Shown here piece by piece: positions 1 through 30,523 of a stretch of 64,000 nt of DNA (position 1 is its first letter; each line of letters starts with the position of its first letter). The stretch comes from a virus (lineage: Duplodnaviria; Caudoviricetes), in IMG/VR virus record IMGVR_UViG_3300005805_000064, positions 21,268 to 85,267 of that record; one strand, written 5' to 3'. The notes below the pieces were generated by a model. The model had not been told where the DNA came from, ran no database searches, and worked only from the letters and a program-made list of their open reading frames with translations. Both the position numbers and the translations under genes were made by a program.

Positions 1-3000
1 TATCAACAGATTCATGGGGATCATCTAATGTGAAGTCAAGACCTACGCCAGTGTTATTCAATGTCAACTTCTTGTTATATGCGATCATGGCTTGGTGACC
101 ATATACAAGCCCGTTTAACGGGTTCTTGGCTGTGAAGATGTAATGCTTGGGTATCTGCAATCTATCTGGTTGCCAGTTGAAATCGAACTTCTCATCGATC
201 TTGAGTTTAGCGAATACTGTAAACATCCAGGGTGTACTGCTTGCTTGTGCTGCGGCATGATATGCTGCTACACGACCATTCACACCATCTACTCTCACTA
301 CCTTGTTAGGCAGATGTTTAGTGATCTTCAACAAATGTTGATAGTTCTCTTCTGCGCAACTTTCACCATTGCTCAAGAAAACGATATCTAATGGTTTTGA
401 TTTAGCGACCCTCTTCGCTTTAGTTATATAAGGATAATCATATAATTCGTTATCCACATATAGTTTCGCTTCTTTTGGTAGTGCAAGAACTGTGCCACCT
501 GTGGTCAATATCTCAATATTCTTAGTATGATCTGCCCATAAACACACAGGTTCATCATAGTTCACCGTTATGTCCTTGTTGTCTGCTGTCTTAAAGATAG
601 CATACGGGAAGTCATAATCTGTCTTGACCGCATCGATATTAGTGTCATGGTCTAACACGAACTCGGGCGCAGGTAATCTCTTTGTCCTGATATGATTGTT
701 ATAATTGATCTTATCATAATCTTCTAACAGATTCATGTCATCGATCAAACTCTTTAATTTGTTGACATCGACTAAGAATGTGTCGCCGAACTTCTGCTTG
801 TCGCTAGGGAACACATGTAGATTCTCTTTAGCGAATGGATCGCAGATATATGTCATATCGAAATTCTGATAATCGCACACAGAACTGCATACCCAGATAT
901 AATTTTCTTTGTTGGGTTTTACCTTCAACGATATGTCGCGCAATGTCTCAAGGTAACTCTTTCTATATGGCACTACATGTACAGTCTTACCCGTAGACTT
1001 AGATAATAATTGCTCTTTGATCTTGTCTGTTTCATTATTACCATGATCTATAAGATAGATATCGTACAAGCAATTCGTTGCCTTAGCAGCACGGTTCTTG
1101 ACAAAGTTAAGATTGCTTAGATGCTCTATGATCTTGATGTACTTGGTGTCTTCAGGAAATGTGTCTTTGTTCAGCAAGTATGTGGTTCCCCAATGGCTCC
1201 ACTGTGTGCCAAATATATGAACCATCTTCAATTGCCAAGGGTTAGGATAATACTTGAAGTCAAAGTTACTGTAATCAAGTTCGCTGTTCAATATCCATGC
1301 TAACTGTGTAGTGCTTCTATTCAAGCAACGATAGATCGTGTCTACCCAACTATTGAGATAGCGTGTCTTTTGTATGTTAGGGAATCTTTCTTGCAACTTC
1401 TCAAATCTTTCTTTAGCCTCGGCATTGCCGCGGTCGATCATGAAGATATCTGGCTGTATGAACAAGTCGGCTAGATATTCGTTCTCTGCTTTGACATCGC
1501 CCGTGACGAAATTATACTGAGTGAAGCCTTGCTTATATAGTTTGCTGTTGACGAAATATGTTTGTGTCTCTTTCGCTTCAGGGCTACCGAATACATGAAC
1601 GAATCTTGCCTGTTCAATATTTGGACGCCAACTGAAATTGAAATTGCTGTAATTAATGTTCTTGTTCAACGCCCAGAACAATTCATCTGTGTGTTCATCT
1701 ATCAAGTCTTCAAGTGTGGTCTGTATATAATACTTAGGAATCTCTACGAACTCACTACGGTGTTTCTTTGTCACACGCTGTAGTTTGATGATCTCACCGT
1801 TGTTCTTTTTAGTTTTGTATATAGGGCCATCTGTATCATCGAACAATGTGCCGAACTGATAGATATATGGCGGGCTACCGGGATTAGGTCTCCAACTGAA
1901 ATCAAAGTCATCAGTATTGATATTTTCTGGTATGACCCAATTGGTCATATCGCTCACTACTTCTGCCGTGATATCATGTATGTACTTTTTCTCAGTAGCA
2001 TTCTTGACATGATACTCTAATGTTGGTTCTACTTCGCCACTGTTCCACTGATTGCCGAACACATAGATATAGGGAGGACTAGTAGGATCAGGTCTCCAAC
2101 TATAGTCAAAATCACTTCTGACTTTGATCAACTCACGCCACTTGTTGTAATCAGGTAATACATGCGCAGTTTGCGGCATATACTTACGCTGTGTAGCACC
2201 CTTGACATGATATTCTAATGTAGGTTCTATCTCAGCACTATTCCACTGATTACCGAACACATAGATATAAGGCTCGTCATGTGGATCAGGTACCCAACTA
2301 TAATCGAAACTTGTGCGATCTACAGGTATGATCTCTGTGAATCGATCATAGTTCTGTGCTAACTGTGCTACGAATGAATTGTCATACTTGTAATCAGTAG
2401 CGCCGCTGACCCTGTACAATATAGTAGGCATCTTTTCTGCTGGATACTGAGTGTTACCGAAAGCATAGATATAAGGTTGTTCTTTGGGGTTCGGTCTCCA
2501 ACTAAAGTCAAAACTTTCTTCAACGATAGGATGCAATATCTTATAGTTATTCTTGTTAGGCAATACGGTAGCAACAATGTCCTCTATATACTTGTATTCA
2601 GTAGCGCCGGGCACATGATATTCTAATGTAGGTTCTACGCTGGCTAAGTTCCATTGATTACCAAACACATAGATATATGGCGGAGCCTTAGGATCAGGCA
2701 CCCAACCAAAATCAAAATCTGATTTGTCTACTGGTATCTTTTCTACCCAGTGTGTCATGTTAGTTGCTAACTTGGCTTTGACATCATCGACATACTTGAT
2801 CTCAGTAGCATTCTCTACGACATAACGAACAGTAGGCATGACTTCGCCGGGATACTGAGTATTACCGAACACATAAATGAATGGATCATCGTATGGGTCA
2901 GGACGCCAGCTAAAGTCGAACTCACTTTCTACTATAGGTATCAATATCTCAAACTTACTTTTGTCTTGTGCGACCTTAGCGATGATATCATGCACATACT

Positions 3001-6000
3001 TTATCTCAGTGGCACCAGGCACATGATATTCAACTGTAGGTTCTTTCTCTGCTCTATTCCATTGATTACCGAACACATAGATATATGGTGGTGCTTCGGG
3101 ATGCGGTACCCAACTGAAATCAAAACTATCAGGTTCTAATCTTATCTTTACTTTAAAATTCTTAGTATCAACTAATGTCTTTGCTTGTATGCCTTTGATA
3201 TATTTCTTTTGAGTAGCATTATGTGTATGATATACAGGACCTCCTACATCATTCCATATCGTAGCAAACTCATAGTCATATGGCTCTTCTGTATTATCAG
3301 GATGCCAACTAAAATCAAAACTATCAACATCTATGTTGCTAGGAATAGTCCAGTTAGTCTTATCAGATAGTTTGATAGCATATTGAACATCGACATATTT
3401 TGTCTCAGTAGCACCTTCGACAACATATCTAGGACCATTAGTCTTTTGATGTTGCGTACCAAACTCATATATGAACGCAGGTTCAGTATCGTCTGGATGC
3501 CAACTAAAATCAAACTGTGAAACATCTAAACCTTCAGGTATCACATAATTTTTGATATCAGGCAGTCTAACTGCTCTCTGACTATCAATATACTTGACTT
3601 CTGTGGCTCCTTCAACCGTATATGTAGGTCCGCCTGTCTTCTGCCATTGTGTACCGAACTGATAGATATATGGCGGGCTACCCGGATCGGGCAACCATTC
3701 GAAATCGAATTTATCTAAATCTATATTATTGTCATATCTCCATTTAGTCATGTCAGCAAATGTCTTTGCTACAACTTCGTTCACATATTTTAATTCCGTA
3801 GCACCCGGCACTACATATTTTACTGTGGGCATGATCTCAGCACTATACTGCTCATTGCCGAACACATAGATATATGGCTGTTCTGTATTATCAGGATGCC
3901 AACTATAATCAAAACTTTTGATTTTTATATCACATAACTGCCAATATATAGATGTAGGTTTAGCGATTGCCTTATCGCTGTACATGTATTTGATCTCACT
4001 AGCACCTTCTACAACATATCTAGGACCGCCGTTCTTTTGATGCTGTGTGTTGAACTCGTAGATATAAGGTTGATCATGTGGATTAGGAATCCAACTAAAA
4101 TCAAACTTGCTATCATCAATATTATCAGGTACTATCCAATTTGTTTTATTCTGTGCTAACTTAGCAACGATATCTGTGATATATTTTTCTTTTATAGCAC
4201 CAGGCATACGATATTCAATCGTAGGCATTTGTCTAGCATCATGATGCTGATTACCAAAGATGTAAATGTAAGGTTCTTCGGTATTATCGGGATGCCAACT
4301 GTAATCAAAATCTTCTATCTCATGATCTATTAAAATATTGAAATTGTTTTGATCAGGCAATCTTTTAGCGATTATACCCTCGACAATCTTGACTTCAGTT
4401 GCACCAGGAACGACATATCTTGGTCCACCGTTCTTTTGATGCTGCGTGCCAAACTCATATATGTAGTCAGGCTCCAATGGGTCGGGCCTCCATGTAAAAT
4501 CAAAACTATTTTTGTCTACATTAGCAGGTATATCCCATCGATCATATTCCGGCAATACAACTACATCATCAGTCATGTACTTTATCTCGGTAGCACCGGG
4601 CACAACATATTCAACTGTTGCTTTATACTTGTTACTGATATACTTGTTACCCCAACGATAGATGTAAGGAGGATCATTGGGATTTGGTATCCAACTAAAA
4701 TCAAACTTATTTTCGTCAATTGGCTGAGTGATTATCCAATTGGTTTTATCTATATCTAATGTTGCTACGATGTCTGCGACATACTTGATTTCAACTGCGC
4801 CCGGTACTACATACTGTATAGTAGGCATTTCTTCTGCTTTGTATTGGTTGTTACCAAAAATATAGATATATGGTTGTTCACTGTTATCAGGGTGCCAACT
4901 ATAGTCGAAATCTTTTATCTTTATATTTTGATTCACAAGCCAATTTGTTATGGTGGGCAACGCTCTTGCCTGTTGACTATCAATATATTTGATTTCAGAT
5001 GCGCCGGGGACAACATATCTAGGACCACCTGTTCTCTGCCACTGCGTGCCGAACTCATAGATATAAGGAGGGTCTTTAGGATGGGGTACCCAGCCAAAGT
5101 CAAACGCGGATATATCGATATTTTCATTAACATGCCAACATTCAGGCTTAATTCCTATCTTAGCCTTGATAGTGTCGATATATTTGTATTCACTGGCGCC
5201 TTCTACAACATATTGTAGCGTCGGCATAATCTCACCTGAATAGTGCTGATTGCCAAACACATAGATATAAGGCTGTTCACTACTATCAGGATGCCAACTA
5301 TAATCGAAATCTTCTACAGGAAAATCTGTAACAACAGTGAATCTATCTTTTTGCGGCATATGCTTCACGGATTGTGAATCAATATACTTGATCTCACTAG
5401 CACCTTCTATGATATATCTTGGTCCATTTGTCTTTTGATGTTGCGTGCCAAACTCATAGATATAAGGTGGGTCGTTCGGATTAGGCTCCCAACTATAATC
5501 AAAGGTCTCATCATCGACACTAGAAGGTACTGACCAGTTCGTCATGCATGGCTTACGGACTACACGGTCGTTCATGTATTTGTACTGAGTGGCGCCCTCT
5601 ACTTTATAGGCTACGCTTACTTTGTCTCTTGGATCATTATGCTGATTACCCCATGCATATATGTAAGGCGGTGCACCTGGATCTGGTCGCCATGTGTAAT
5701 CCATGCCTGTGCAATCTTCATATATCTCAAATAACTCAGGCTTTGACTTTAATCTTGCATACCATGCGTTGTCAATATACTTTCTTTCAATCGCGCCTTC
5801 TACATGATATTCAATAGTAGGCATCTCTTCAGCACGGTAATGCTGGTTACCCCATACATAGATATAAGGCGGATGTGTGGGGTCCGGGACCCAGGCCCAG
5901 TCAAAACTATTATCATCTACATCATGTATTATTTTGTAATTATTTTTATTAGGTTTTAATTCTACAAATTTCTCCATGTACTTGTAGTCTGTAGCCCCGG

Positions 6001-6469
6001 GCACACGATATTCTATAGCAGGCTTGTGCGTAGCAGGAAAATATCTACAACCCCAGGCATAGATATAGGGAGGATCGGTTGGGTCCGGGTACCAACTGAA
6101 ATCAAACAACTTCTCATCGACATCATAATTTAATACCCAATTGTCAGACTTGCTCTCAGTCCTTAACAGTTGAGGAACATCTTGTCTGTATATTATATTA
6201 CCGCCAGACTCTTTAGCACATAGCCAAGTACCGCTATCTTTATTATGCTGGCTGGGCCATACATTATCATGCTCGCCGGTCCATACTTGGTCGTCTGGTA
6301 AAAATTCAAAATCGAAATCCCAATCGAAACCTGTATAGTCGCAGAACTCGTTGACTATCCAAAAATGTTCAGTCGTTGCTAGTAATCTTGCTTCTTCTAA
6401 ATTTTTAGCAGGCTGTTCTAATGGATGAACATTGGGTTTTTTGCCGAAGTAGAATACATCTCTTAACAT
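1..6469 (-). CDS. Giant repeat protein (>2156 aa, runs off the left edge, absent from the ORF track): degenerate GT-A-like N-module, 22 tandem ~67-aa repeats, then three degenerate GT-A-like modules
   Basis: Manual translation. ATG at 6469 (MLRDVFYFGKKPNVHP...). The same frame is open where I translated it in register at 4142-4312, 1022-1500 and 2-460 (...PLDIVFLSNGE...VDGVNGRVAAYHAAAQASSTPWMFTVFAKL...NPLNGLVYGHQAMIAYNKK...), and the repeat motif reads through the stretches between. No stop before position 1, which explains why the track omits it. I did not check every codon in register. Confidence 0.9.
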   Translation of the reverse strand, partial: MLRDVFYFGKKPNVHPLEQPAKNLEEARLLATTEHFWIVNEFCDYTGFDWDFDFEFLPDDQVWTGEHDNVWPSQHNKDSGTWLCAKESGGNIIYRQDVPQLLRTESKSDNWVLNYDVDEKLFDFSWYPDPTDPPYIYAWGCRYFPATHKPAIEYRVPGATDYKYMEKFVELKPNKNNYKIIHDVDDNSFDWAWVPDPTHPPYIYVWGNQHYRAEEMPTIEYHVEGAIERKYIDNAWYARLKSKPELFEIYEDCTGMDYTWRPDPGAPPYIYAWGNQHNDPRDKVSVAYKVEGATQYKYMNDRVVRKPCMTNWSVPSSVDDETFDYSWEPNPNDPPYIYEFGTQHQKTNGPRYIIEGASEIKYIDSQSVKHMPQKDRFTVVTDFPVEDFDYSWHPDSSEQPYIYVFGNQHYSGEIMPTLQYVVEGASEYKYIDTIKAKIGIKPECWHVNENIDISAFDFGWVPHPKDPPYIYEFGTQWQRTGGPRYVVPGASEIKYIDSQQARALPTITNWLVNQNIKIKDFDYSWHPDNSEQPYIYIFGNNQYKAEEMPTIQYVVPGAVEIKYVADIVATLDIDKTNWIITQPIDENKFDFSWIPNPNDPPYIYRWGNKYISNKYKATVEYVVPGATEIKYMTDDVVVLPEYDRWDIPANVDKNSFDFTWRPDPLEPDYIYEFGTQHQKNGGPRYVVPGATEVKIVEGIIAKRLPDQNNFNILIDHEIEDFDYSWHPDNTEEPYIYIFGNQHHDARQMPTIEYRMPGAIKEKYITDIVAKLAQNKTNWIVPDNIDDSKFDFSWIPNPHDQPYIYEFNTQHQKNGGPRYVVEGASEIKYMYSDKAIAKPTSIYWQLCDIKIKSFDYSWHPDNTEQPYIYVFGNEQYSAEIMPTVKYVVPGATELKYVNEVVAKTFADMTKWRYDNNIDLDKFDFEWLPDPGSPPYIYQFGTQWQKTGGPTYTVEGATEVKYIDSQRAVRLPDIKNYVIPEGLDVSQFDFSWHPDDTEPAFIYEFGTQHQKTNGPRYVVEGATETKYVDVQYAIKLSDKTNWTIPSNIDVDSFDFSWHPDNTEEPYDYEFATIWNDVGGPVYHTHNATQKKYIKGIQAKTLVDTKNFKVKIRLEPDSFDFSWVPHPEAPPYIYVFGNQWNRAEKEPTVEYHVPGATEIKYVHDIIAKVAQDKSKFEILIPIVESEFDFSWRPDPYDDPFIYVFGNTQYPGEVMPTVRYVVENATEIKYVDDVKAKLATNMTHWVEKIPVDKSDFDFGWVPDPKAPPYIYVFGNQWNLASVEPTLEYHVPGATEYKYIEDIVATVLPNKNNYKILHPIVEESFDFSWRPNPKEQPYIYAFGNTQYPAEKMPTILYRVSGATDYKYDNSFVAQLAQNYDRFTEIIPVDRTSFDYSWVPDPHDEPYIYVFGNQWNSAEIEPTLEYHVKGATQRKYMPQTAHVLPDYNKWRELIKVRSDFDYSWRPDPTSPPYIYVFGNQWNSGEVEPTLEYHVKNATEKKYIHDITAEVVSDMTNWVIPENINTDDFDFSWRPNPGSPPYIYQFGTLFDDTDGPIYKTKKNNGEIIKLQRVTKKHRSEFVEIPKYYIQTTLEDLIDEHTDELFWALNKNINYSNFNFSWRPNIEQARFVHVFGSPEAKETQTYFVNSKLYKQGFTQYNFVTGDVKAENEYLADLFIQPDIFMIDRGNAEAKERFEKLQERFPNIQKTRYLNSWVDTIYRCLNRSTTQLAWILNSELDYSNFDFKYYPNPWQLKMVHIFGTQWSHWGTTYLLNKDTFPEDTKYIKIIEHLSNLNFVKNRAAKATNCLYDIYLIDHGNNETDKIKEQLLSKSTGKTVHVVPYRKSYLETLRDISLKVKPNKENYIWVCSSVCDYQNFDMTYICDPFAKENLHVFPSDKQKFGDTFLVDVNKLKSLIDDMNLLEDYDKINYNNHIRTKRLPAPEFVLDHDTNIDAVKTDYDFPYAIFKTADNKDITVNYDEPVCLWADHTKNIEILTTGGTVLALPKEAKLYVDNELYDYPYITKAKRVAKSKPLDIVFLSNGESCAEENYQHLLKITKHLPNKVVRVDGVNGRVAAYHAAAQASSTPWMFTVFAKLKIDEKFDFNWQPDRLQIPKHYIFTAKNPLNGLVYGHQAMIAYNKKLTLNNTGVGLDFTLDDPHESVD
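1800..6130 (-). repeat. 22 intragenic tandem repeats, ~200-bp period, consensus FD(F/Y)SWxPDPxxxPYIYxFG(NQW/TQH)...Y.VxGAxExKY
   Basis: The FDFSW-encoding motif (forward strand ccaact..aatcaaa-like) recurs at about 6105, 5900, 5695, 5495, 5300, 5095, 4900, 4700, 4495, 4300, 4100, 3905, 3700, 3505, 3310, 3115, 2910, 2710, 2505, 2300, 2100 and 1900. The copies are diverged at the DNA level and conserved at the protein level. Confidence 0.9.
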
Positions 6470-6474
6470 GCATT

Positions 6475-6482
6475 TACTTATT
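6475..6482 (-). promoter_or_regulatory. Possible late-promoter variant ATAAGTA, 5 nt upstream of the repeat-protein ATG
   Basis: The minus strand reads AATAAGTA-AATGC-ATG. This is one mismatch to ATAAATA, with the same 5-nt spacing as at the gp25-like gene. Confidence 0.4.
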
Positions 6483-7130
6483 TCATAATTTTATTTGGAA
6501 ATAATTATTTGCACATTCATGTAATGAATTATTTTGTATAAACTTAGTTAAAAAAGATGCAAGTAGCATGTTTTCATATGGACTAAAATGATTCGGGCTT
6601 GAATCACAATTAACCCAATTTTTGCGGGACTTGATACCTAGTCTTCTACTTAATGAAAATAGATCCGGTTTAAACTTTGTACCATTTAATTCTGACGATA
6701 TTATTTCAGTATCCTTAAAACAAAACAAGTGTATCACATTTTTATCAGCAACAATGTTGTTTAGTTCGTTAAACCATTGCAGCATAGCCCATTGATTCAC
6801 TTTTTCATTGTAAACATGTTTAAGATAAAACTCTCTTATTTCATTTTTTAAAGAGATACTTTCATCTGATCCAAAATAGGTTCGTTTGTCCCCTAACATC
6901 CTAGATTGTTCAGTATGACAAAATACGAATAAGTCTGTATTATTGAACTTTGTTCTGTGCTGATTTTTATATTGTATTAAATCTAATCTGCTAGGCCACC
7001 AAGAACAACCAGGAAAACCTTCTCCTGTTAATTCATATCCTAGATTGTTGGCTAGAATCAAGGGCCAATGCTCAGTCGGGCTAGTTCTATTAAAACAAAA
7101 ACTATCACCGGTTATATAGATATATTTCAA
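6483..7130 (-). CDS. SGNH/GDSL hydrolase-like protein
   Basis: N-terminal YITGDSF (block I Ser), GxS-type block II (GFPGCSW) and C-terminal PNHFS His motif. Confidence 0.65.
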   Translation of the reverse strand: MKYIYITGDSFCFNRTSPTEHWPLILANNLGYELTGEGFPGCSWWPSRLDLIQYKNQHRTKFNNTDLFVFCHTEQSRMLGDKRTYFGSDESISLKNEIREFYLKHVYNEKVNQWAMLQWFNELNNIVADKNVIHLFCFKDTEIISSELNGTKFKPDLFSLSRRLGIKSRKNWVNCDSSPNHFSPYENMLLASFLTKFIQNNSLHECANNYFQIKL

Positions 7131-8608
7131 CTTACTACCTTTAAATCGTACAATTTTTCAAATCTGTCAGCGTCACTACGATCATTGACCATTGGCTCGC
7201 CGCGTATATTCAATGATGTATTGAGCAACATTGGACAGCCTGTTTTCTTATACCATTTTTCTAAGAGTTGTCGTATCCCAGATCGATCTTCTGGAACAGT
7301 CTGTACACGGCTAGTCCCGTCATGATGAACAATAGCGGGATAAAGGTCAGGACGCTTGCAAGTAGCGATGACCTGCATATACCTACTATCATTCCAATTA
7401 ACAGGCATATCGAAATATTGATGTACATACTCCTCAAGAATGACTGGAGCAAAGGGTCTAAATTTTTGTCTTCGTTTGATTTCATTGACTTTATCCTTTA
7501 TCTCGGGTCCTCGAGGATCAGCCAATAAACTACGGTTGCCTAATGCGCGAGGCCCGAATTCTGCTCTTCCGCTAGCAACACCTACCATCTTGTTCTTCTT
7601 AAGTTCTTTGATAACTTTATCTACGGGATATGGACCTGCTATCTCATGACCTAAGAATGCGTCAGTCCAATTTATCTTTCTGCCATAACCCAATGCTGCT
7701 GCACCTAGGCTGTTACCTGCATCGCCCGGGTTAGGCATGATCCATATATCTTTAAAATATTTACCTAGCAATCGATTAGCGAGGCAGTTTAGTGCCACAC
7801 CACCGCCATAAACTAAGTTTTTGCTGCTACCTAATCTAAATGCTTTATGCATGACCTTCTCTATCAAAGTCTCGCACACTAACTGTGCGCTGCTTGCTAT
7901 GTCCATGTCATCTGCTTTAGTTAAAAAATTATTAGGTTCGAGCCCTATGTGTAGGTTGTGTCTAAAATCTAACTCAAATAAATCAGACATATAATGACTG
8001 ACGATTCTGTTGGCATGGCTAGGTTTACCATATGCAGCCATTCCCATTAGGATATATTCTTCTTCGTTAGGTTTTAATCCAACACGCTGTGTCATGGCAC
8101 TATAAAATAGACCTATACTATTAGGATACTTCTTGCTCCACAACTTAGTATAGTGCGCAGTACCATTCTTGTCATAACATGCATCCCATATGCTGATGCA
8201 ATCCATCTCACCTATAGCATCGATGATGACTACAGTGGCATGATCAAAGGGACTAGTCTGAAATCCTGCTGCGGCATGTGACTTATGATGAACATGAGTC
8301 TGTATAGGTCTGTCCCCTAACAGATCACATAGTTCAGAACCTATGATTCTCTTGACACTTAGCGGGCTTATAGTTTGTCCAGCGCGCCATTGCCTATAAG
8401 CCTTTAACCATGGTTTCTCATAATAGTTCAGTTTATAGGTCTCACCTGCATAGGATAATGCATCCTTGATGAGTCCTTCACAAAGGTTCTCGTCATGCTT
8501 CTTTTTGCTATATCTCTCGCTATGTCCGGCAAACAGTATATTGCCATCGTCTGAGATAACGCTCAAAGCAGCATCATGAAATCCCGCGCTTATACCTATA
8601 TGATTCAT
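7127..8608 (-). CDS. O-carbamoyltransferase, NodU/CmcH/TobZ family (Kae1-like plus YrdC-like domains). Probable start is MNHIGIS at 8608 rather than 8641.
   Basis: Family motifs GISAGFHDAA, HHKSHAAAGF, IDAIGE, SIGLFY, EYILMGMAAYG, GGVALNCLAN, PGDAGNSLG, GRAEFGPRALGNRS, KRRQKFRPFAP, HHDGTSRVQTV and LNTSLN. The ATG at 8608 forms an ATGA overlap with the upstream stop. Confidence 0.95.
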   Translation of the reverse strand: MNHIGISAGFHDAALSVISDDGNILFAGHSERYSKKKHDENLCEGLIKDALSYAGETYKLNYYEKPWLKAYRQWRAGQTISPLSVKRIIGSELCDLLGDRPIQTHVHHKSHAAAGFQTSPFDHATVVIIDAIGEMDCISIWDACYDKNGTAHYTKLWSKKYPNSIGLFYSAMTQRVGLKPNEEEYILMGMAAYGKPSHANRIVSHYMSDLFELDFRHNLHIGLEPNNFLTKADDMDIASSAQLVCETLIEKVMHKAFRLGSSKNLVYGGGVALNCLANRLLGKYFKDIWIMPNPGDAGNSLGAAALGYGRKINWTDAFLGHEIAGPYPVDKVIKELKKNKMVGVASGRAEFGPRALGNRSLLADPRGPEIKDKVNEIKRRQKFRPFAPVILEEYVHQYFDMPVNWNDSRYMQVIATCKRPDLYPAIVHHDGTSRVQTVPEDRSGIRQLLEKWYKKTGCPMLLNTSLNIRGEPMVNDRSDADRFEKLYDLKVVS

Positions 8609-9486
8609 TGACAAACTACACCTTCTATTTGATCTGCCCAATATTTATGATGGTTGATACCGGGATGTGATCTATCTCTAGCCAAATCTAAATTTGTTTC
8701 TATATCTTCAGGACTAGTCCACTCCGGCAAAAGAGTAATATGTTCGAATTTCATTAATTTCATCATTTGATAAGTGGGCCTATCCCAGGATGATATGAAT
8801 GTTTTTATGTCTTTAAGTTTAGACAAATAATCTAGATTATATATGTCGTCCTTCATTCTTCTTATTAATTCTGGTTCGGGAGTATATTTGAAGTATGACT
8901 TTGTTTGTATGTTATAATCCTCTAAATCTTTTTCTTGTTGCATTAACAAATTACATAACTTTATAGACTGGTTATTAATCTTATTAATAGCACACAGTTG
9001 TCTTCCATACGAAGGCATCAAAAATACCGCTCGGTCTATTTTCATATGTCTACTGATTATTGAAAAAACATCGCAAGTTGCTTTTATACTGCTTCCGGAA
9101 ATTCCGAAATTATATGAGTTTAAATTATGTTTTTTTGAAAGAAGCTTATGCCACAATTTATCAGACGGTAACCCTACCCCAAAGGTATAACTACAACCAA
9201 ACGCTGCTAATTCTAAATGACTATTTTGATTTATTTCGATATCTCTAAAACCTAATGAGTTCAGCACATAATCAAAGTCACCATGTTTCCAGTTTTCTGC
9301 ATTATCTTTTTCTGCTACTGTCCACATAGGTACCTGCTTTTTTAATTCACCATTTGCTAATATTAAATCAGGTCTGGCTGTAACCGGAGTATAATTAGAG
9401 AGATAATTTAAACTACACCCGTGTAGGTTTAATTGCAGCAATTCAGTTTGATTCTCAAATCCTACATTCAGTCTTTTTAATGCCAT
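8605..9486 (-). CDS. SGNH hydrolase-like protein
   Basis: LNSLGFRD followed by AAFGCSYTFGVG (block I variant), NFGISGSS (block II) and DRSHPG (DxxH). Confidence 0.7.
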   Translation of the reverse strand: MALKRLNVGFENQTELLQLNLHGCSLNYLSNYTPVTARPDLILANGELKKQVPMWTVAEKDNAENWKHGDFDYVLNSLGFRDIEINQNSHLELAAFGCSYTFGVGLPSDKLWHKLLSKKHNLNSYNFGISGSSIKATCDVFSIISRHMKIDRAVFLMPSYGRQLCAINKINNQSIKLCNLLMQQEKDLEDYNIQTKSYFKYTPEPELIRRMKDDIYNLDYLSKLKDIKTFISSWDRPTYQMMKLMKFEHITLLPEWTSPEDIETNLDLARDRSHPGINHHKYWADQIEGVVCQ

Positions 9487-9492
9487 GTGTAT

Positions 9493-9594
9493 TCAATAAA
9501 TGAATGGGTCGCGCTTTTTTAATTCTTTCAATCGTTTTTTATAACGATATTCCATGATTATCTTATAATAAATTCGTTTTATAAAATTAAACAT
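9493..9594 (-). CDS. 33-aa basic microprotein MFNFIKRIYYKIIMEYRYKKRLKELKKRDPFIY (not in track)
   Basis: ATG at 9594 and TGA at 9493-9495. It fills the gap between the rSAM stop (9596) and the SGNH start (9486) almost exactly. Confidence 0.75.
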   Translation of the reverse strand: MFNFIKRIYYKIIMEYRYKKRLKELKKRDPFIY

Positions 9595-9595
9595 A

Positions 9596-12778: not shown

Positions 12779-12779
12779 T

Positions 12780-22247: not shown

Positions 22248-22972
22248 TGTAGTTCTCGTAGTTTAGGTAATACTAAATGATTTACTATAGATTGGTGCCC
22301 TTCAATAGTAGGATGAGTAGTCTGATCGTACTGATTAATATCTAACACATATTGATCTATACCATATGCTTTGCCATTTCTTTTATATGCGACAATTTCA
22401 CAGTTAATAGGAAATTCTGAAAAATCAATGTCGTCAGCAGTAGCATTATTATGCAACCCCAGCAAAAACAGAAATTTGTTATTACCTGTTTTAAATGCTT
22501 CTGATAGCAAGTTCGTTTGAAAAGATAAAAATCTAGCATTATCTTGCCAAGAGGTATTTACCTCATGAGGCCATATATCTGCAATCCATCGATAGTGTGT
22601 CTTAAAACCTGACAAAACATATTTTCTTCCATATATCTCATGAGTTTTTAACGGCATATCTTCGGTTGATTCTAGATACTTGAATAGATCGTATGCTTTA
22701 AAAAAATCATAACCGTGCGTCCCGGAAGTAATATCCAAATCTTCTCTTCTTATATGGGTAGATTGAAATATTATCAGACAATTTTCAAAAGTTATTTTTT
22801 CATAAGCCCAAATAGCATAAAAATTGTTTAGTATAGTTTTATTAGATGCCCCGGGAACAGTGAACTTCACTAATGATTTGCCTAACAAATTAGATAGGTA
22901 ATCAGCCCAACTCAATTTGTAGTCAGTAAAACTATCACCTATCGCAACAATAGTGTCTCTAATCAATCTCAT
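22232..22972 (-). CDS. SGNH hydrolase-like protein
   Basis: VAIGDSFT, VPGASN and C-terminal DQTTHPTIEGH. Confidence 0.7.
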   Translation of the reverse strand: MRLIRDTIVAIGDSFTDYKLSWADYLSNLLGKSLVKFTVPGASNKTILNNFYAIWAYEKITFENCLIIFQSTHIRREDLDITSGTHGYDFFKAYDLFKYLESTEDMPLKTHEIYGRKYVLSGFKTHYRWIADIWPHEVNTSWQDNARFLSFQTNLLSEAFKTGNNKFLFLLGLHNNATADDIDFSEFPINCEIVAYKRNGKAYGIDQYVLDINQYDQTTHPTIEGHQSIVNHLVLPKLRELQWTTK

Positions 22973-24195
22973 AAATTAATACCTGAATTTGAATATAGAC
23001 TTAAATCCGTACTGTACATCTCTTTATAATTTTTACCCCAGTTATCTTTATTATATCCATATTGCGACATTAAATCTGCCCATTCCGGAAAAACATCTAG
23101 GAAAGATTCGCGCCGCCTGATATCAAATTTCATCAAATGATTTATTGCTATAGGCATGAGATTAGTCCAATCTTTACTGAACATATAATTAATCATACCA
23201 TCGACATCACCTTTATCATGCCACACTCTAGTTTTCATTTCTTGCAAATATTTCGCTGCCTTTTCTTTTTCATGTTGTGGTAATACATGCAGCGTATATT
23301 CTTTAGAATACACTACCGTATTATTGTACATTCCTTTAGGATCTATCGCATATAATTCTTCTAACAAATCACCCCATTTATATAATATGGGCCAAGCAAT
23401 AGTAGTGATGTAAGTTCTTTTTATAGGTAAATCGGCATCTCTGACTAATTTAATATTCTGTATAATGTCATTCCAATCAGTACCGTAGCGCCAATAACCA
23501 TGACCGGGGCCCGCAGCATCGACACTCATTCTAAAATCTATTTCATCAAAATGTTTCCATTTATCAAAAATATGTTGACCTTTAAAAGTCAACTGACTTA
23601 CATTAGAATAATAATTTAATTTAGGTTTGTATCCATTCTTAATAAAGAAATCAAGCAACTCCCAATGTTGCCAATGCAATAATGGTTCGCCGCCGCTAAA
23701 TGTTATTCTTCGTATTGTGTGAGCATGTTTTTTAACTTGATCTAAAACAAAACCCTCATATGGACCCGGTGTTCTGTGTACTTCATATGTATGATTATCT
23801 TTTTCTTCATACATCTTGTTTTCATGTGCTATTCGTGAACTTACATGATCGTAGCAAATTCTGCACTTTGAGTTACACAAATTAGAAAATCTAACCTCTA
23901 CATGATGTATTTCATCTTTATAATATACATCCTCTTCAAAATGATTTACTTTGTCTTTGCGTTCACTGCCTAAACCCATATCTTCAAGATAATAACAGGC
24001 ATTGCAGCGGCTAGGACGCTCATCTCTTAGATGTTGCTCTCTTAATTCTTTTAAGAAAGGGTCGGCACGGTATTCATCTATAGTGATGGTGTCTTTATTT
24101 GTTGTTATGAAAGGACATATACCTACGGTTCCTGCCATAGAATAATGTATTGCCCCGAAAGGCATAGGGCAACGATTTTTATATTCTGTAGTCAT
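22969..24195 (-). CDS. Radical SAM protein with N-terminal twitch-like module (subfamily B-like)
   Basis: CPMPF...GICP and CNACY, then CNSKCRIC, SGGEPL and SVDA. Confidence 0.9.
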   Translation of the reverse strand: MTTEYKNRCPMPFGAIHYSMAGTVGICPFITTNKDTITIDEYRADPFLKELREQHLRDERPSRCNACYYLEDMGLGSERKDKVNHFEEDVYYKDEIHHVEVRFSNLCNSKCRICYDHVSSRIAHENKMYEEKDNHTYEVHRTPGPYEGFVLDQVKKHAHTIRRITFSGGEPLLHWQHWELLDFFIKNGYKPKLNYYSNVSQLTFKGQHIFDKWKHFDEIDFRMSVDAAGPGHGYWRYGTDWNDIIQNIKLVRDADLPIKRTYITTIAWPILYKWGDLLEELYAIDPKGMYNNTVVYSKEYTLHVLPQHEKEKAAKYLQEMKTRVWHDKGDVDGMINYMFSKDWTNLMPIAINHLMKFDIRRRESFLDVFPEWADLMSQYGYNKDNWGKNYKEMYSTDLSLYSNSGINL

Positions 24196-25724: not shown

Positions 25725-25731
25725 ATATTCC

Positions 25732-27297
25732 TCAATTTTGTGTATATTCTTTCACGCACTCTTTCCAGTAATTCTTAAACTCCGGGAAGGTGAGTAGGAA
25801 ATTAGTGCCCCGTCTTTTATCGAACTCTTTAATGAAAAGATAGAAATTCTTCTTATTTATTGACTTTTGATTTTGGGGCAAAGATTCCTTCATCACAGCC
25901 AAATCTCGCTTGACTTTGAGTATCTCGTAGGGCTTGAAACCCTCGAATGTCTCTAAGTAGTCATCTCCCTGCACATTGTCTTCCATGAACTTCAAACAAC
26001 GCTCTACTTCTTGTATCTCTTTCTCGGTAGCATTAGTCACGCTGAACCAAGGCGGGAAACGCAAGATAGGAATGTCAAAGAACACACGCTGGAACTTTTT
26101 CTGCGTGTAGACTTTGTGAACGATACCATGCTTCTTTTCTTCTTCCGTTTGCTCAGGACTGATAGTGAACTCAGTCTGCGCACGACCGCCGAACTCACGG
26201 CGTAGTTCCAATATCATCTCAAGGAACTTGTGTAAACTAGGTATGCTCAACAAGTTAAAGGTATTGATGAAACTCACAGTAGTGTACTTTGTCTCACGCA
26301 AGAAGGTTCTGATGTTGTTCAACATCCTATCATATTCTAGACCTGTGCGCATATACTCTGCTTGAGGGCCCACTCCGTCTAGTGACACGAATAGCCAGAA
26401 ATGCTTGAAACCTTTATCTACATACCAATGATTACCGCTGAACTCATTGAAGTTTTCCTTGTCTTCATATGTGCGCAACTCTTCGATAGCCTTGACTTTT
26501 TCTAGGAACTTATCAAATAGTTTCTGATCGGGTGGGCACATGTTGCTGGTTATGCTCAACTCAAGTTGTCCATGAGGATTCTTGTTGACATAATCAAGCA
26601 CTTTGAATGTGTTCTTGTCCATTAATGGCTCGCCACCTGTCATACGGAACACACGCAACTTTCTATAGATAGTGGGCCACCATTTCCAGAAAGCCTCTAC
26701 ATAAGGATTTTCTTTCTGTGCTACTCTTATGGGCATCAAGCCCTTTTGCTCTAATGATGGTAGATCATTGTGAACATAATTGTCTAACACGAATCCGCCA
26801 TACTTTCGTACTTCTTCTTCCCATGTCGTTGACAAGTGTGGGCTGCAATACATGCATTTGAAATTACATGCTTGATTGAAATTGACTTCTACATATCGGG
26901 GAGTCACATCATAGTCCCAAGGATTACCCGTGACTTCATCGAATGTAGGTGCGTTCCACCATTCGCTACTACGATAGTGACGATCACTTAGATGTCCTTT
27001 AGGATCATCGCTCTGCGCATCTTCTACACGCCAGCAATATGCACAGCCTTCGGGTCTTTTACCCTCAAGCATCATCTTGCGTTCGGCAATCTTTTGTGGT
27101 GTGTTGTGTAATGCGCTTGGTTGCTTTTCTAATAATTCTACAGGTATCTTATGTGTAGGTGGATGATAGCAACTCTGTGTGAGTCCTTGCGGCAAGTGCA
27201 AACTCACTTGCTGCCATTTTGCTAGGCATAAAGAAGGACTGACCGCATTTAAGCGGTCTCGCATGTCCCTAGCAAATTGATCGTATTCGCCTGACAT
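25732..27297 (-). CDS. Radical SAM protein with N-terminal twitch-like module (subfamily A)
   Basis: CLAKW...SCYHPP and CAYCW, then CNFKCMYC, TGGEPL and SLDG. Confidence 0.9.
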   Translation of the reverse strand: MSGEYDQFARDMRDRLNAVSPSLCLAKWQQVSLHLPQGLTQSCYHPPTHKIPVELLEKQPSALHNTPQKIAERKMMLEGKRPEGCAYCWRVEDAQSDDPKGHLSDRHYRSSEWWNAPTFDEVTGNPWDYDVTPRYVEVNFNQACNFKCMYCSPHLSTTWEEEVRKYGGFVLDNYVHNDLPSLEQKGLMPIRVAQKENPYVEAFWKWWPTIYRKLRVFRMTGGEPLMDKNTFKVLDYVNKNPHGQLELSITSNMCPPDQKLFDKFLEKVKAIEELRTYEDKENFNEFSGNHWYVDKGFKHFWLFVSLDGVGPQAEYMRTGLEYDRMLNNIRTFLRETKYTTVSFINTFNLLSIPSLHKFLEMILELRREFGGRAQTEFTISPEQTEEEKKHGIVHKVYTQKKFQRVFFDIPILRFPPWFSVTNATEKEIQEVERCLKFMEDNVQGDDYLETFEGFKPYEILKVKRDLAVMKESLPQNQKSINKKNFYLFIKEFDKRRGTNFLLTFPEFKNYWKECVKEYTQN

Positions 27298-28250
27298 TAC
27301 CAGCCTTCGATCCTTCTGATCACATCCATCTCTGTCACAAGAGGACCAAGATTATGCTTATCAGCATTGTAATGCCTCTTGAAGAATTCGCTTTGCTCTG
27401 CCGATAATGTGCAGATAGGTAAACCTAATTTGAACTTCAGTTGTTCGCCCACTTGTTCCATAGCGTCTTTGGGATCTTTGCCTTCTGCATATTCGTTCCA
27501 CAATGCAGGATAGTTATCGAACCATTGAACATTGCTATGGTCCCAGTCACTTAGCATAGTGAGATATGTTCCCAATCGTGCGCCATACATAGCCCAATAA
27601 CCGTTGTCAACATCTGCGCCTACATTCTGCCATATAGTGAGATTATTGAAGTTACGGCTTGCTACAGAATCTTTAAATTGCTCTACTGTCGGTACTGCGC
27701 CCTTGTTCAAGCACATCTTTACACCTTCACGGAAACCTGCACGCCATGCTTGAAACGGAGTGTAGTTAGGGTATGTAGTTGAATAGCAATCATACATAGC
27801 CCAATATAAACTGTCTTTGCTGTCTAGGCAGAAGTCTGCGATTCGTGATACATCACCTTCAGTCTGATGCTCATGTGTCTTCATCTCACGCACATAAGTC
27901 TTAGTCCAACTGCTCATGCCACCGTTACCATAACGCAAGCCATTGATAGCATTCACTGCCTTCCAACGGAACTGTGCTAACTTATACTTAGGATCTTTAT
28001 CTGTGAAATCGAATTGTATGTTGAAGAACTCAGGTTGCGGCATGTTGTCGCCGTCGATGAGAATAAAGCGTTCAGTATCGCTTGCCTCACCTGCTGCTTT
28101 ATGCGCAGCATCACTACCTTTAACATTATCAACACGCTTTGCCCAAGGAACCATGTTCTGAATCTGCATCCAGAATTCTTCTTTTTGTGGTTCATCATAA
28201 CTCAAGTAAATGCAGTCTAATTCTGCAACATCTACGATATCATAACTCAT
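27297..28250 (-). CDS. GT-A fold glycosyltransferase-like protein, homologous to the C-terminal module of the giant repeat protein
   Basis: DCIYLSYDE (beta1), RVDNVKGSDAAHKAA, FILIDGDN (DxD) and NGLRYGNGG. It aligns by eye with DIVFLSNGE...RVDGVNGRVAAYHAA...NGLVYGHQA at <1-400. Confidence 0.65.
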   Translation of the reverse strand: MSYDIVDVAELDCIYLSYDEPQKEEFWMQIQNMVPWAKRVDNVKGSDAAHKAAGEASDTERFILIDGDNMPQPEFFNIQFDFTDKDPKYKLAQFRWKAVNAINGLRYGNGGMSSWTKTYVREMKTHEHQTEGDVSRIADFCLDSKDSLYWAMYDCYSTTYPNYTPFQAWRAGFREGVKMCLNKGAVPTVEQFKDSVASRNFNNLTIWQNVGADVDNGYWAMYGARLGTYLTMLSDWDHSNVQWFDNYPALWNEYAEGKDPKDAMEQVGEQLKFKLGLPICTLSAEQSEFFKRHYNADKHNLGPLVTEMDVIRRIEGW

Positions 28251-28596
28251 GTGTATGTAACTTCCATTTTTGTTGATCTGTGTAGTCGCTATTTACTACA
28301 ACGCTAATATCTGTTTTTGCAGTGGATTGACCTTCATCAGCAGGCTTTAATTTAGAAAATGTCATGCCAGGTACAATCTTCACTATTTTTCCTTCAATAA
28401 CTCTAATATCATACCGCATCTCTGAAAAGGTATTTTTGTCGATGATGATATAATTTCCTTCCGGCTTATCACAGGTGTAGAAATCTACACTACCATCATC
28501 TCTGTAGTAGAGTCTGAATTCGACGGGTTCCACTATAGTTTCTTCAGCCACTAGATATTCTACCCCGTTTATCTCTATTACTTTAAGTCTTTCCAT
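28240..28596 (-). CDS. Hypothetical protein (118 aa)
   Basis: ORF overlapping both neighbours in the operon. No recognisable motif. Confidence 0.7.
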   Translation of the reverse strand: MERLKVIEINGVEYLVAEETIVEPVEFRLYYRDDGSVDFYTCDKPEGNYIIIDKNTFSEMRYDIRVIEGKIVKIVPGMTFSKLKPADEGQSTAKTDISVVVNSDYTDQQKWKLHTHEL

Positions 28597-29386
28597 ATGC
28601 GTTTTCTATTTTACTACAAAAGTCCTTCACATGATAATGAAAAGGATACATTTGCGGTACTGTATTCACTCTTAGTGTATCGGGTAATATTTCATAAACC
28701 AATTCTTTTGTCCAATCTTCTGTTTTAAGATTGTTGATCATTTGTTTCATGTGCACCATGCTAAATTCCTTAAACAAGGGCATAGTAGTTTTTTCAACGC
28801 CTATCATGCTACATGCTATGGCATAAACCCAATCGGTAGTTGCTTCTTCATCTACTTTACATTGTAGTAACTTTTTATATTCATCCCAATTTTCGAATAT
28901 ATTTCTCACCAACTTAAAAAAATGTTCAGCGGTTTCGCTTTTCTTAAAATAAGTTAACGCATTATAACAGTCAGGAAGATTGTTGTTATCTATGAACTTT
29001 CTATAATAGCGCACATCAGATATCCTCTGATTGTAACTTCTAATATGTGTGCTTACCACTACATCGAGTTGTGAGCAAACATCAAAATAATAATCTATAG
29101 GTCGCGGTATATACAAGTCTGCTTCAAGTTTTATAGTATGATCATATGGGCTTGCTTCATAAACTTGCCAGTCATTTATTAGTTTCCATTTACTTTCTTT
29201 TGCTTGATCACCATATGGCAAGGCTATGACACTATCAAAATATGTGCTAGCATCGATGTCGTCCGTTAATAAAGATATATGCATATGAGGCATAGTTTTC
29301 TTTATGCTTCTTGCTAATATTTCTGCACATTTGATGTAATCAATGTCTACAGTATTTTGTGCTAAGATTACAAAACCTCTACTCAT
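28583..29386 (-). CDS. GT-A glycosyltransferase-like protein (GT8/mannosyltransferase-like), tandem paralog of the 29383-30195 gene
   Basis: GFVILAQN...ISLLTD...YEASPYDHTIKLEADL (ExD variant of DxD). Confidence 0.65.
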   Translation of the reverse strand: MSRGFVILAQNTVDIDYIKCAEILARSIKKTMPHMHISLLTDDIDASTYFDSVIALPYGDQAKESKWKLINDWQVYEASPYDHTIKLEADLYIPRPIDYYFDVCSQLDVVVSTHIRSYNQRISDVRYYRKFIDNNNLPDCYNALTYFKKSETAEHFFKLVRNIFENWDEYKKLLQCKVDEEATTDWVYAIACSMIGVEKTTMPLFKEFSMVHMKQMINNLKTEDWTKELVYEILPDTLRVNTVPQMYPFHYHVKDFCSKIENAYGKT

Positions 29387-30195
29387 TTTGTCAACTCCAC
29401 AAATATATCTTTGTTTATGACATGAAAATCCATATTTTTTAATGTGATGTATTCTTTTTTGATTTTACCTCTCATCCATTTATCATATATTACTGTGTAC
29501 TCTGTGCAGAACACATCATCATTATTTTTATATACAAAAGTCTTAGGACCTATATGTGTTAAATTCCAAGGTATGATATCTGATCTGATATCAGCATGTC
29601 CATTAACTATCCTATGTGCTATAGTCAACCCGTAATCATTTCTATAGGTGTCGCATGAGAACTTATGTATATTACCGTAGTGTGGGTAATTCTCTTGAAC
29701 CATCTTCAAGCACTGAAAAATATTCTCTACTCGTTTTGTCTTTTTGAATCCTACAACAGTAGCCCATAATGTAGGTATGGTCAGTTCGTTGCTAAAGTCT
29801 AAATGTTCTTTCTTATCATATTCGTTCATTAAAAAGTTGATAGATTCATGACAACAAAAATCATCCATGACATCAAAAACTTTCATCAGAGTGTCGCTAT
29901 TGACAAGATAATCCACATCTAACAAAATAGTATCGTCATATGGGCTCAGTTCATAACTACGGTAGCGTCCTTTATTTAACCAGACTCTTCCATGAAATGT
30001 GTTGTTGGGATCGCTGTCTATCGTATAGACATTATCAAATTTATAGCCCGTAGTAGTCGCTAATGAATTCTTATCTGTAACTATGCTTACTGGAAGATTG
30101 AGAAAATGATTCACACGCTTGGCAGTAAACTCAGCCATGTGATAGTAATTGTATTCAGGACTATTGAACGCAAAAAGAAGAACACCTTTTGTCAT
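29383..30195 (-). CDS. GT-A glycosyltransferase-like protein (GT8/mannosyltransferase-like)
   Basis: GVLLFAFN...VSIVTD...YELSPYDDTILLDVDYL (DxD). Confidence 0.7.
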   Translation of the reverse strand: MTKGVLLFAFNSPEYNYYHMAEFTAKRVNHFLNLPVSIVTDKNSLATTTGYKFDNVYTIDSDPNNTFHGRVWLNKGRYRSYELSPYDDTILLDVDYLVNSDTLMKVFDVMDDFCCHESINFLMNEYDKKEHLDFSNELTIPTLWATVVGFKKTKRVENIFQCLKMVQENYPHYGNIHKFSCDTYRNDYGLTIAHRIVNGHADIRSDIIPWNLTHIGPKTFVYKNNDDVFCTEYTVIYDKWMRGKIKKEYITLKNMDFHVINKDIFVELTK

Positions 30196-30497
30196 CGCTT
30201 GGTCTCGGTCTCTTTAAACTCTGTAAGATATGATGACATGTTTTCTTGATAGACTGATTTGAGCCTATTCAACAACGATAGCCTGTCAACTTCGACTGGT
30301 CTGTTGTGCGTATCGATGAGTATCAGTTTTTCTGTGTCGAAACTCTGTAAAAGGGTTATTGTTTCTGCGTTAGCAGCCCATAATCCATTTTGATCGGCAA
30401 CTAAAAATTTGTTTTTGTATTTTTCTCTAAGGTAATCTTTAGCAGAATTATGTGCGAATCTTGCTTTTGCTTCGGATAGAAGGCTTTGGATATCCAT
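30192..30497 (-). CDS. Hypothetical protein (101 aa), first gene of the enzyme cluster
   Basis: ORF with an AGAGGAG Shine-Dalgarno and a TATAAATA upstream. ATGA overlap with the next gene. Confidence 0.8.
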   Translation of the reverse strand: MDIQSLLSEAKARFAHNSAKDYLREKYKNKFLVADQNGLWAANAETITLLQSFDTEKLILIDTHNRPVEVDRLSLLNRLKSVYQENMSSYLTEFKETETKR

Positions 30498-30515
30498 ATA
30501 AACTCCTCTTCCGAG

Positions 30516-30523
30516 TATTTATA
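30516..30523 (-). promoter_or_regulatory. T4-type late promoter TATAAATA heading the enzyme cluster
   Basis: Exact T4 late consensus in the intergenic gap, 18 nt upstream of the 30497 start. Confidence 0.75.

Follow-up and report, generated by a model that had tools for sequence, protein, structure and literature searches.

What would a phage make with twelve radical S-adenosylmethionine (SAM) enzymes encoded directly after its fibre genes? This question is raised by a 64,000-nucleotide stretch of a tailed phage (Caudoviricetes), hereafter the window, which comprises bases 21268-85267 of one 85,267-bp virus contig (IMG/VR record IMGVR_UViG_3300005805_000064; contig C1, locus L001). Here the twelve radical SAM genes stand in one chain with genes for putative glycosyltransferases, four SGNH-like proteins, an O-carbamoyltransferase, a short-chain dehydrogenase/reductase (SDR), a giant repeat protein and a 33-aa peptide (Table 1). 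On balance, we favour the reading that the chain forms a single operon, transcribed late and confined to the cytoplasm, for the synthesis and extensive tailoring of a product that contains carbohydrate, with the virion as a plausible target of its decoration. The enzyme inventory of the initial annotation, which was made from the sequence alone, stands; the conserved peptide had been left unweighed in it.

A tightly coupled operon with a putative late-type promoter

All sizeable genes of the window lie on the minus strand. Those between 33286 and 63876 encode baseplate wedge and hub proteins, a 6288-aa protein and fibre-like proteins, and the wedge protein is about 33% identical to its counterparts in myoviruses of 340-490 kb (Phosso, Munch, fHe-Yen9-04 and Atu_ph07). 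As CheckV estimated the completeness of the contig at about 22%, the full genome is probably near 390 kb; a near-identity DNA search of phage records with 20 kb returned no match. Directly upstream of the operon, a 316-aa protein of the fibre region contains a Peptidase_G2 chaperone domain, confirming that fibre genes immediately precede the cluster, and the baseplate wedge and hub genes lie farther upstream. The open reading frame (ORF) of the 6288-aa protein (33286-52152, minus strand), between the baseplate wedge and fibre genes, shows weak similarity to ORF361 (2541 aa, virion-confirmed) of RsoM2USA, a cultured jumbo phage of Ralstonia.

From the first ATG at 30497 to the repeat gene at 6469, all joints are overlaps or gaps of at most 13 nt, as measured after correction of two TTG-extended starts. 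The chain comprises 25 minus-strand genes when the hidden peptide gene is counted, in keeping with the tightly coupled chain of about 24 genes first described. Beyond the window start it continues with genes for AdoMetDC (gap of 11 nt) and a nucleotide-sugar dehydrogenase (gap of 1 nt), which brings the total to 27 genes and about 32 kb.

The predicted T4-type late promoter box TATAAATA at the cluster head, followed by GAGGAG before the ATG, is the single copy on both strands of the 64-kb window, where 10.6 +/- 3.4 copies were expected. Its core ATAAATA is depleted three-fold in the window (11 copies, with 35.7 +/- 5.5 expected), and 10 of the 11 cores lie on the coding strand. Seven of these ten fall in intergenic gaps, six of them 6-47 nt and one about 155 nt ahead of a baseplate or fibre gene or the cluster head. 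Judged by this distribution, the phage very probably uses the late box, which the cluster and the structural genes have in common, and the late-type promoter motif originally proposed for the cluster head is upheld. Besides the copy at the cluster head, the 85-kb contig has only two of TATAAATA, both on the coding strand before the window start (17281-17288 and 19421-19428 of C1): one lies at the end of the dehydrogenase gene, and the other precedes the start codon of the next gene by 6 nt. The unit that follows the dehydrogenase begins with such a copy. Three ATAAATA cores lie inside operon coding sequence (8642-8648, 12982-12988 and 25854-25860, minus strand), the first of them 34 nt before the carbamoyltransferase ATG, and they may be internal late promoters; in two relatives (L005 and L007) a similar box stands about 80 nt before the peptide gene. 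Sigma-70-like promoters and terminators inside the cluster were at or below chance.

No transmembrane-grade hydrophobic stretch was found in any cluster protein, and Pfam matched none of them to a flippase, polymerase, ligase or polyprenyl-phosphate transferase.

Eleven N-twitch radical SAM paralogues and one further putative radical SAM protein

The CxxxCxxC motif is kept in all twelve radical SAM proteins, in agreement with the number first counted. Eleven of them belong to the NCBIfam family NF033640 (N_Twi_rSAM). Of ten genes scored against NF033640, nine reached 203-359 bits (cut-off 170), including 244-359 bits for the genes at 18999-20210, 17713-19002, 15333-16628 and 12780-14033, and two further members, 14033-15343 and 16625-17722, were assigned by alignment. 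The twelfth protein (9596-10777) falls outside the family, with 31 bits for NF033640 and 17.4 bits in Pfam (cut-off 29.5), and is a putative radical SAM protein by its motif and its match to PHROG 21308, annotated 'radical SAM'; its orthologue is present in L004.

In the alignment of the eleven sequences, five cysteines (C74, C77, C140, C144 and C147) and the SAM-binding motif GGEP are the same throughout, and C12 and C31 nearly so. A four-Cys twitch domain precedes the CxxxCxxC core, and the Pfam SPASM matches, at residues 12-112, lie ahead of the Radical_SAM matches. NF033640 has the same four-Cys domain before CxxxCxxC and GGEP, whereas here it recurs as an 11-member array inside a phage operon. 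The family is a catalogue entry, for which a literature search returned neither a paper nor a tested member. Among solved structures, the N-terminal twitch domain best matches (E 0.003, about 60 residues) the founding twitch enzyme BtrN, the butirosin 2-deoxy-scyllo-inosamine dehydrogenase, which has one auxiliary [4Fe-4S] twitch domain and a sugar-like substrate; its twitch domain is C-terminal, in contrast to the N-terminal one found here.

The eleven paralogues are only 17-36% identical to each other, and each has its own orthologues. FastTree analysis resolved two deep subfamilies and separate orthogroups common to phage relatives and Bdellovibrionota, and by this measure the eleven N-twitch enzymes are old paralogues. 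The protein encoded at 25732-27297, for example, has orthologues at L058_9947, L040_9959, L063_9884 and Rso349. For genome scans a narrower alignment was used as the seed, because the 11-paralogue alignment was too divergent.

Putative glycosyltransferases and tailoring enzymes

At the head of the operon, two paralogous GT8-like proteins belong to a family whose consensus reads LDAD and whose profile matched only glycogenin in the PDB, weakly (E 0.05-0.4). The pair has no Pfam GT8 match, and one family member matches Mannosyl_trans3 at 0.006. The protein at 29383-30195 has orthologues in all relatives, including ORF353 of RsoM2USA.

The 317-aa protein at 27297-28250 was modelled with AlphaFold (pLDDT 81), and Foldseek matched the model to RmlT, BcsA, TarP and PBCV-1 A64R at a probability of 0.9-0.99. 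The VIA structural comparison gave Z scores of 8-9.2, with viral glycosyltransferases also among the matches. Among the fold matches are A64R and the glycosyltransferases of Che8 and Gordonia phages, which are cytoplasmic, virus-encoded GT-A enzymes. The DGD motif is nearly invariant in the family, and the orthologues, including RsoM2USA ORF350, are 41-80% identical. In the predicted structure, then, the protein adopts a GT-A fold with a DxD-type motif. The family profile found no match among PDB sequences, and the protein atlas returned only unnamed viral clusters for the 317-aa protein. No Pfam or NCBIfam match was obtained for the 101-, 118-, 270-, 267- or 317-aa proteins or for the repeat protein, nor a PHROG match for the 101-aa protein.

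The tailoring enzymes proposed initially were also recovered. For the O-carbamoyltransferase, both Carbam_trans_N and Carbam_trans_C exceeded their cut-offs, and GdmN (about 1e-41) and TobZ (about 1e-37) followed NovN among the PDB matches; the protein is 47% identical to the RsoM2USA carbamoyltransferase, and its solved relatives act on hydroxyls of sugars and other natural products. The SDR, which exceeds its Pfam cut-off, had no orthologue among the relatives examined. Three of the four SGNH proteins carry GDS and the fourth (8605-9486) GCS; the four are putative SGNH proteins, and all four groups align to DUF6071/GDSL-like phage proteins by hhalign (probability 98%, E about 1e-14), although the Pfam GDSL scores remain below cut-off (17-18 bits) and two of the proteins have none. 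No orthologue of 22232-22972 was found in L004. A nucleotide-sugar dehydrogenase gene like that at the operon end also adjoins GT-A-like and radical SAM genes in another locus (L056).

Table 1. Operon features in order of transcription (window positions)
Position	Strand	Feature	Evidence or remark
30516-30523	-	Predicted T4-type late promoter box TATAAATA	18 nt before the ATG (30497) of the first cluster gene
30192-30497	-	101-aa conserved protein, first gene of the operon	Same-position orthologues in L007, L013, L015, L017
29383-30195	-	GT8-like (glycogenin/LgtC-like) putative glycosyltransferase, DVD motif	Paralogue of 28583-29386
28583-29386	-	Second GT8-like putative glycosyltransferase, EAD replacing DxD	PHROG 1903 at 3e-6
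28240-28596	-	118-aa conserved protein	Orthologues in L004, L013, L017
27297-28250	-	GT-A-fold protein (317 aa), DGD motif	AlphaFold and fold search; always directly before the first radical SAM gene
25732-27297	-	N-twitch radical SAM, core orthogroup common to Bdellovibrionota glycan loci	NF033640 293 bits
24195-25724	-	N-twitch radical SAM, core orthogroup	NF033640 298 bits; 49% to RsoM2USA_202
22969-24195	-	N-twitch radical SAM	NF033640 251 bits
22232-22972	-	SGNH/DUF6071-like, GDS at residues 12-14	Lipase_GDSL 17.9 bits (below cut-off); hhalign 98%
20850-22247	-	N-twitch radical SAM, core orthogroup	NF033640 314 bits; tree placement
20170-20853	-	SDR	Pfam adh_short 32.2 bits (cut-off 26.6)
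18999-20210	-	N-twitch radical SAM	NF033640
17713-19002	-	N-twitch radical SAM	NF033640
16625-17722	-	N-twitch radical SAM	Pfam Radical_SAM and SPASM; alignment; first twitch Cys missing
15333-16628	-	N-twitch radical SAM	NF033640
14033-15343	-	N-twitch radical SAM	Pfam Radical_SAM and SPASM; alignment
12780-14033	-	N-twitch radical SAM	NF033640
12023-12778	-	SGNH/DUF6071-like	GDSL below cut-off; hhalign 98%; two orthologues in L004
10770-12026	-	Eleventh N-twitch radical SAM	NF033640 203 bits; PHROG 14086 match
9596-10777	-	Twelfth radical SAM	CxxxCxxC at residues 18-25; Cys-rich (SPASM/twitch-like) C-terminus; PHROG 21308 at 1e-14
9493-9594	-	33-aa basic micropeptide MFNFIKRIYYKIIMEYRYKKRLKELKKRDPFIY, own Shine-Dalgarno	Ends KKRDPFIY; conservation
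8605-9486	-	SGNH/DUF6071-like, GCS block I, DRSH block V	hhalign to DUF6071 98%, E 6e-14
7127-8608	-	O-carbamoyltransferase, NodU/CmcH/TobZ family	Pfam 169 + 125 bits; PDB NovN 9e-49
6483-7130	-	SGNH/DUF6071-like, GDS at residues 8-10	Alignment and hhalign; L004 orthologue after carbamoyltransferase
1-6469	-	Repeat protein, first 2156 of 2248 residues in the window	22 repeats of 64-68 aa; three GT-A-like modules that lack DxD follow

A conserved micropeptide and a giant repeat protein

The 33-aa peptide is conserved in L003-L007, L013, L015-L017 and L079. It is nearly invariant in every phage locus with a carbamoyltransferase, always just before the SGNH and carbamoyltransferase genes, and in the relatives it ends RDPFIYK; in RsoM2USA it is an unannotated ORF. 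A metagenome homology search, with a 61-aa frame extension of the peptide as the query, retrieved at least 120 protein clusters. In the bacterial (Bdellovibrionota) loci no DPFIY-type peptide was found, and a literature search on DPFIY returned no relevant paper. A carbamoyltransferase gene (sxtI) beside two short ORFs (sxtJ and sxtK) and a GDSL lipase gene (sxtL) is also known from the saxitoxin set (PMC2885083), which thus has the same kind of neighbourhood, within a surrounding pathway that is unrelated. The SxtK-like profile PF19451 (DUF5989) gave no candidate on the whole contig, in a first-look filter that may miss a 33-aa target.

The repeats of the giant protein follow the consensus FDFSWxPDPxxPPYIYxFGNQ…EYxVPGATExKY, and a profile built from them matched 157 representatives out of 1.84 billion proteins, each of them with 1-25 copies matched. 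An AlphaFold model of three repeats (pLDDT 94) consists of small beta units in which YIY forms a buried-type beta strand. Foldseek found no match for this model in the PDB, and the protein atlas gave no usable match for the repeats. An exhaustive structural comparison returned nine weak rows (Z 2-3.1), eight of them GT-A glycosyltransferases, so that in the model the repeats form beta units that are similar to the acceptor half of GT-A enzymes. The module at the C-terminus shares homology with the GT-A-fold protein at 27297-28250 but has no DxD, and two further modules likewise lack it. The giant repeat protein first described as a 'scaffold' is real, with 2248 aa and 22 repeats, and proved to be an accessory part that is found in few relatives.

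In one of these (L079), the repeat protein (1590 + 1082 aa) directly follows the peptide and carbamoyltransferase. It is called there as two overlapping ORFs (1590 and 1082 aa; 5048-13041), so that a single giant gene may have been broken there by a frameshift or by faulty assembly. That the protein is a simple fibre was considered and ruled out by the homology of its modules to GT-A proteins and by its linkage to the carbamoyltransferase in L079.

The cassette in phage and bacterial relatives

The same gene order recurs in metagenomic contigs of up to 361 kb: fibre, S/T-rich protein, a protein of about 104 aa, two GT8-like proteins, a protein of about 118 aa, the GT-A-like protein, the radical SAM array, the peptide, SGNH and carbamoyltransferase. 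This order is conserved in L004, L005, L007, L013, L015-L017 and L033, and the post-fibre linkage is kept in L005, L007, L013, L015-L017, L033 and ORF348-355 of RsoM2USA. The synteny with structural genes on which the initial proposal leaned therefore extends across distant relatives, RsoM2USA included. The number of radical SAM genes ranges from 2 to 12 across the phage loci while the peptide end is constant. RsoM2USA has two radical SAM, two GT8-like, two GT-A-like and three DUF6071 proteins in addition to the peptide and carbamoyltransferase, and the head part of its set (ORF348-354) stands behind the genes for baseplate, giant and fibre proteins, among them ORF361 and ORF356, both confirmed in the virion, and the fibre-like ORF355. 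Vibrio phage K566 carries three N-twitch genes and neither the peptide nor the carbamoyltransferase.

Arrays of N-twitch genes, up to eight in number, are likewise found in Bdellovibrionota, complete chromosomes included. Orthologues of the protein at 25732-27297 lie there among genes for GT4, a DegT aminotransferase and a carbamoyltransferase (L063) and among GT2, GT-C-like and GT-A-like genes (L040). On the Bdellovibrionales chromosome OZ220490.1 (L058, 9947-20237), seven tandem N-twitch genes and one more radical SAM gene have PhoH, GGDEF and glutamate dehydrogenase genes nearby; an 840-bp gap in this locus, checked for a precursor peptide or RNA, held only transposase-like fragments and had no Rfam match.

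Other genes of the contig lie downstream of the operon. A 285-aa protein encoded 6 kb past it (C1 14358-15215, minus strand) joins a P-loop kinase of APS kinase/KTI12-like type to an NMNAT/cytidylyltransferase-like nucleotidyltransferase, and in L007 and L016 this fusion directly follows the carbamoyltransferase. At C1 10156-13322 (minus strand), a single gene (197 aa) separates the gene of a MoxR-type AAA ATPase from a DUF2201 metallopeptidase/VWA-like gene.

What the operon may build

Sugar chemistry as the substrate class, the reaction of each enzyme and the target are what we infer from these genes. Glycan tailoring is the best reading because the cassette stays after the fibre genes in relatives and because its radical SAM relatives in Bdellovibrionota lie partly in glycan loci with GT2, GT4, DegT and carbamoyltransferase genes. 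The virion is a plausible target because of the late box, a fibre linkage that survives deep divergence and an enzyme set that is soluble only. In the pathway we propose, the two GT8-like proteins and the GT-A-fold protein would transfer sugars, from precursors supplied partly by the nucleotide-sugar dehydrogenase at the operon end and possibly by the kinase/nucleotidyltransferase elsewhere on the contig. Each of the eleven N-twitch enzymes, and the twelfth radical SAM protein, would then make a radical edit of its own (oxidation, epimerisation, deoxygenation or C-C bond formation), and the SDR, the four SGNH/DUF6071 proteins and the O-carbamoyltransferase would finish the tailoring. The 33-aa peptide may be an obligate partner of the SGNH and carbamoyltransferase pair, as an accessory subunit or an acceptor, and the repeat protein, assembled from presumably catalytically dead GT-A pieces, may bind or carry the glycan. 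The most likely recipient would be a late-assembled phage structure, for example fibre or baseplate proteins.

Several observations weigh against this reading. The substrate class is deduced from neighbourhood and fold; GT8 membership is weak (E 0.05, without a Pfam match), and the nucleotidyltransferases IspD and GlmU have the GT-A fold and reach Z scores equal to those of glycosyltransferases against 27297-28250, so that the fold fits either type of transferase. Ahead of the cluster head, the late box is not kept in relatives. In the 361-kb relative L005, the head is preceded by a terminator-like hairpin (2950-3020) that contains a sigma-70-like TTGACA-17 nt-TAAAAT and by no late box, and the timing of transcription may on this evidence differ between relatives. 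The tail part of the RsoM2USA set (three DUF6071, radical SAM, peptide and carbamoyltransferase) lies 90 kb away from the head part, beside DNA ligase, RlaP and helicase genes instead of fibres, and in Bdellovibrionota several arrays are surrounded by housekeeping genes and have no sugar gene in their vicinity. The virion glycan-decoration pathway initially proposed is accordingly supported in its carbohydrate role, independently, by the bacterial orthologues in GT4, GT2, DegT and carbamoyltransferase loci, and is weakened in its link to the virion by the lack of a conserved late box at the cluster head of relatives and by the place of the RsoM2USA tail part. Finally, a conserved peptide with an invariant C-terminus beside radical SAM enzymes is compatible with a peptide-derived product as well.

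A peptide-derived product, akin to ribosomally synthesised and post-translationally modified peptides or to mycofactocin, is the foremost alternative, to which we assign a low though appreciable likelihood. Here the 33-aa peptide would be the precursor or scaffold, the radical SAM enzymes would modify DPFIY(K), and the glycosyltransferase, SGNH and carbamoyltransferase proteins would decorate it. In mycofactocin biosynthesis, the peptide MftA ends in Tyr and is served by the radical SAM/SPASM enzyme MftC and the glycosyltransferase MftF; the logic of a small peptide with a C-terminal Tyr, a radical SAM enzyme with an auxiliary cluster and a glycosyltransferase is similar, whereas the present operon has no MftB-type recognition protein or peptidase, an N-terminal auxiliary domain and other glycosyltransferase families. 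The near-invariance of the peptide in every carbamoyltransferase-bearing phage locus, RsoM2USA included, speaks for such a product, as do the auxiliary Fe-S clusters, which are typical of peptide maturases, and weak side matches in NCBIfam. Glycogenin, the sole PDB relative of the GT8-like pair, glucosylates a tyrosine, and the GT8-like proteins could in the same way prime a glycan on the peptide tyrosine. The 22 PDPxxPPYIY strands of the repeat protein also resemble the end of the peptide, but YIY is a buried-type beta strand there, so the resemblance may be structural only. Moreover, at E 0.01 or better none of the cluster proteins matched a PqqD/RRE recognition domain, a peptidase or an exporter/transporter, and the peptide has a strongly basic sequence and is tied to the genes for SGNH and carbamoyltransferase instead of the radical SAM array. 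Its end stays constant while the radical SAM count varies from 2 to 12, and the enzymes occur without the peptide in the Bdellovibrionota arrays and in Vibrio phage K566.

Glycan tailoring also has a bolder form, which we hold to be speculative and unlikely. In this form, the glycan would be primed on the tyrosine of the DPFIY peptide or of the 22 PYIY repeats, rewritten residue by residue by the N-twitch series and then carbamoylated and acyl-edited, a chemistry that phages and predatory bacteria would share and that would yield a virion or secreted decoration without known counterpart.

Two further alternatives are weaker than the peptide-derived product. The operon could be an auxiliary metabolic island that remodels the host O-antigen or capsule and so blocks superinfection or alters adsorption, as has been proposed in print for glycosyltransferases of a pelagimyophage host-recognition cluster (PMC7029224). 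Its bacterial relatives do lie in cell-surface glycan loci, and the island occupies the variable post-fibre region where such genes collect. However, the cluster encodes no membrane protein, polyprenyl-phosphate transferase, flippase, polymerase or ligase, a late promoter is ill-suited to exclusion, and the core gene order is conserved and not cassette-like, which makes host-surface remodelling improbable. That the enzymes hypermodify nucleotides or phage DNA/RNA is highly improbable: DNA is a frequent target of phage glycosyltransferases, the radical SAM/peptide/carbamoyltransferase half of the RsoM2USA set adjoins genes for DNA ligase, RlaP and helicase, the carbamoyltransferase of relatives is followed by a kinase/nucleotidyltransferase, and the radical SAM core of the array has side matches to MoaA, viperin, QueE and NrdG, but these matches are far below cut-offs and concern the common core only, the promoter is of late type, the bacterial contexts are glycan loci, and no DNA-binding or base-excising enzyme appeared among the operon matches.

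Possible implications for viral glycosylation

Virion glycosylation is known for chlorovirus PBCV-1, Che8-type mycobacteriophages and mimivirus fibrils. We know of no radical SAM enzyme, carbamoyltransferase or micropeptide in the glycosylation systems of chloroviruses, mycobacteriophages or mimivirus. The initial annotation knew of no characterised pathway of such scale, and our literature search found no functional study of such radical SAM arrays; the arrays themselves, on the other hand, are already in print, mentioned in passing for a T4-like viral genome of marine origin with twelve radical SAM genes (PMC5332604) and as radical SAM cassettes in a pelagimyophage host-recognition cluster (PMC7029224).

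With 12 genes in 17.7 kb, or about 32 kb together with its partners, this array is among the densest known radical SAM groupings in any virus, and large phages from water and soil share its conserved N-twitch orthogroups with Bdellovibrionota. Since a reduced form of the system is present in the cultured phage RsoM2USA, the question of its product is directly testable. If glycan tailoring is the true function, radical chemistry would join the viral glycosylation repertoire, and it might explain how such phages vary or protect their host-recognition apparatus.

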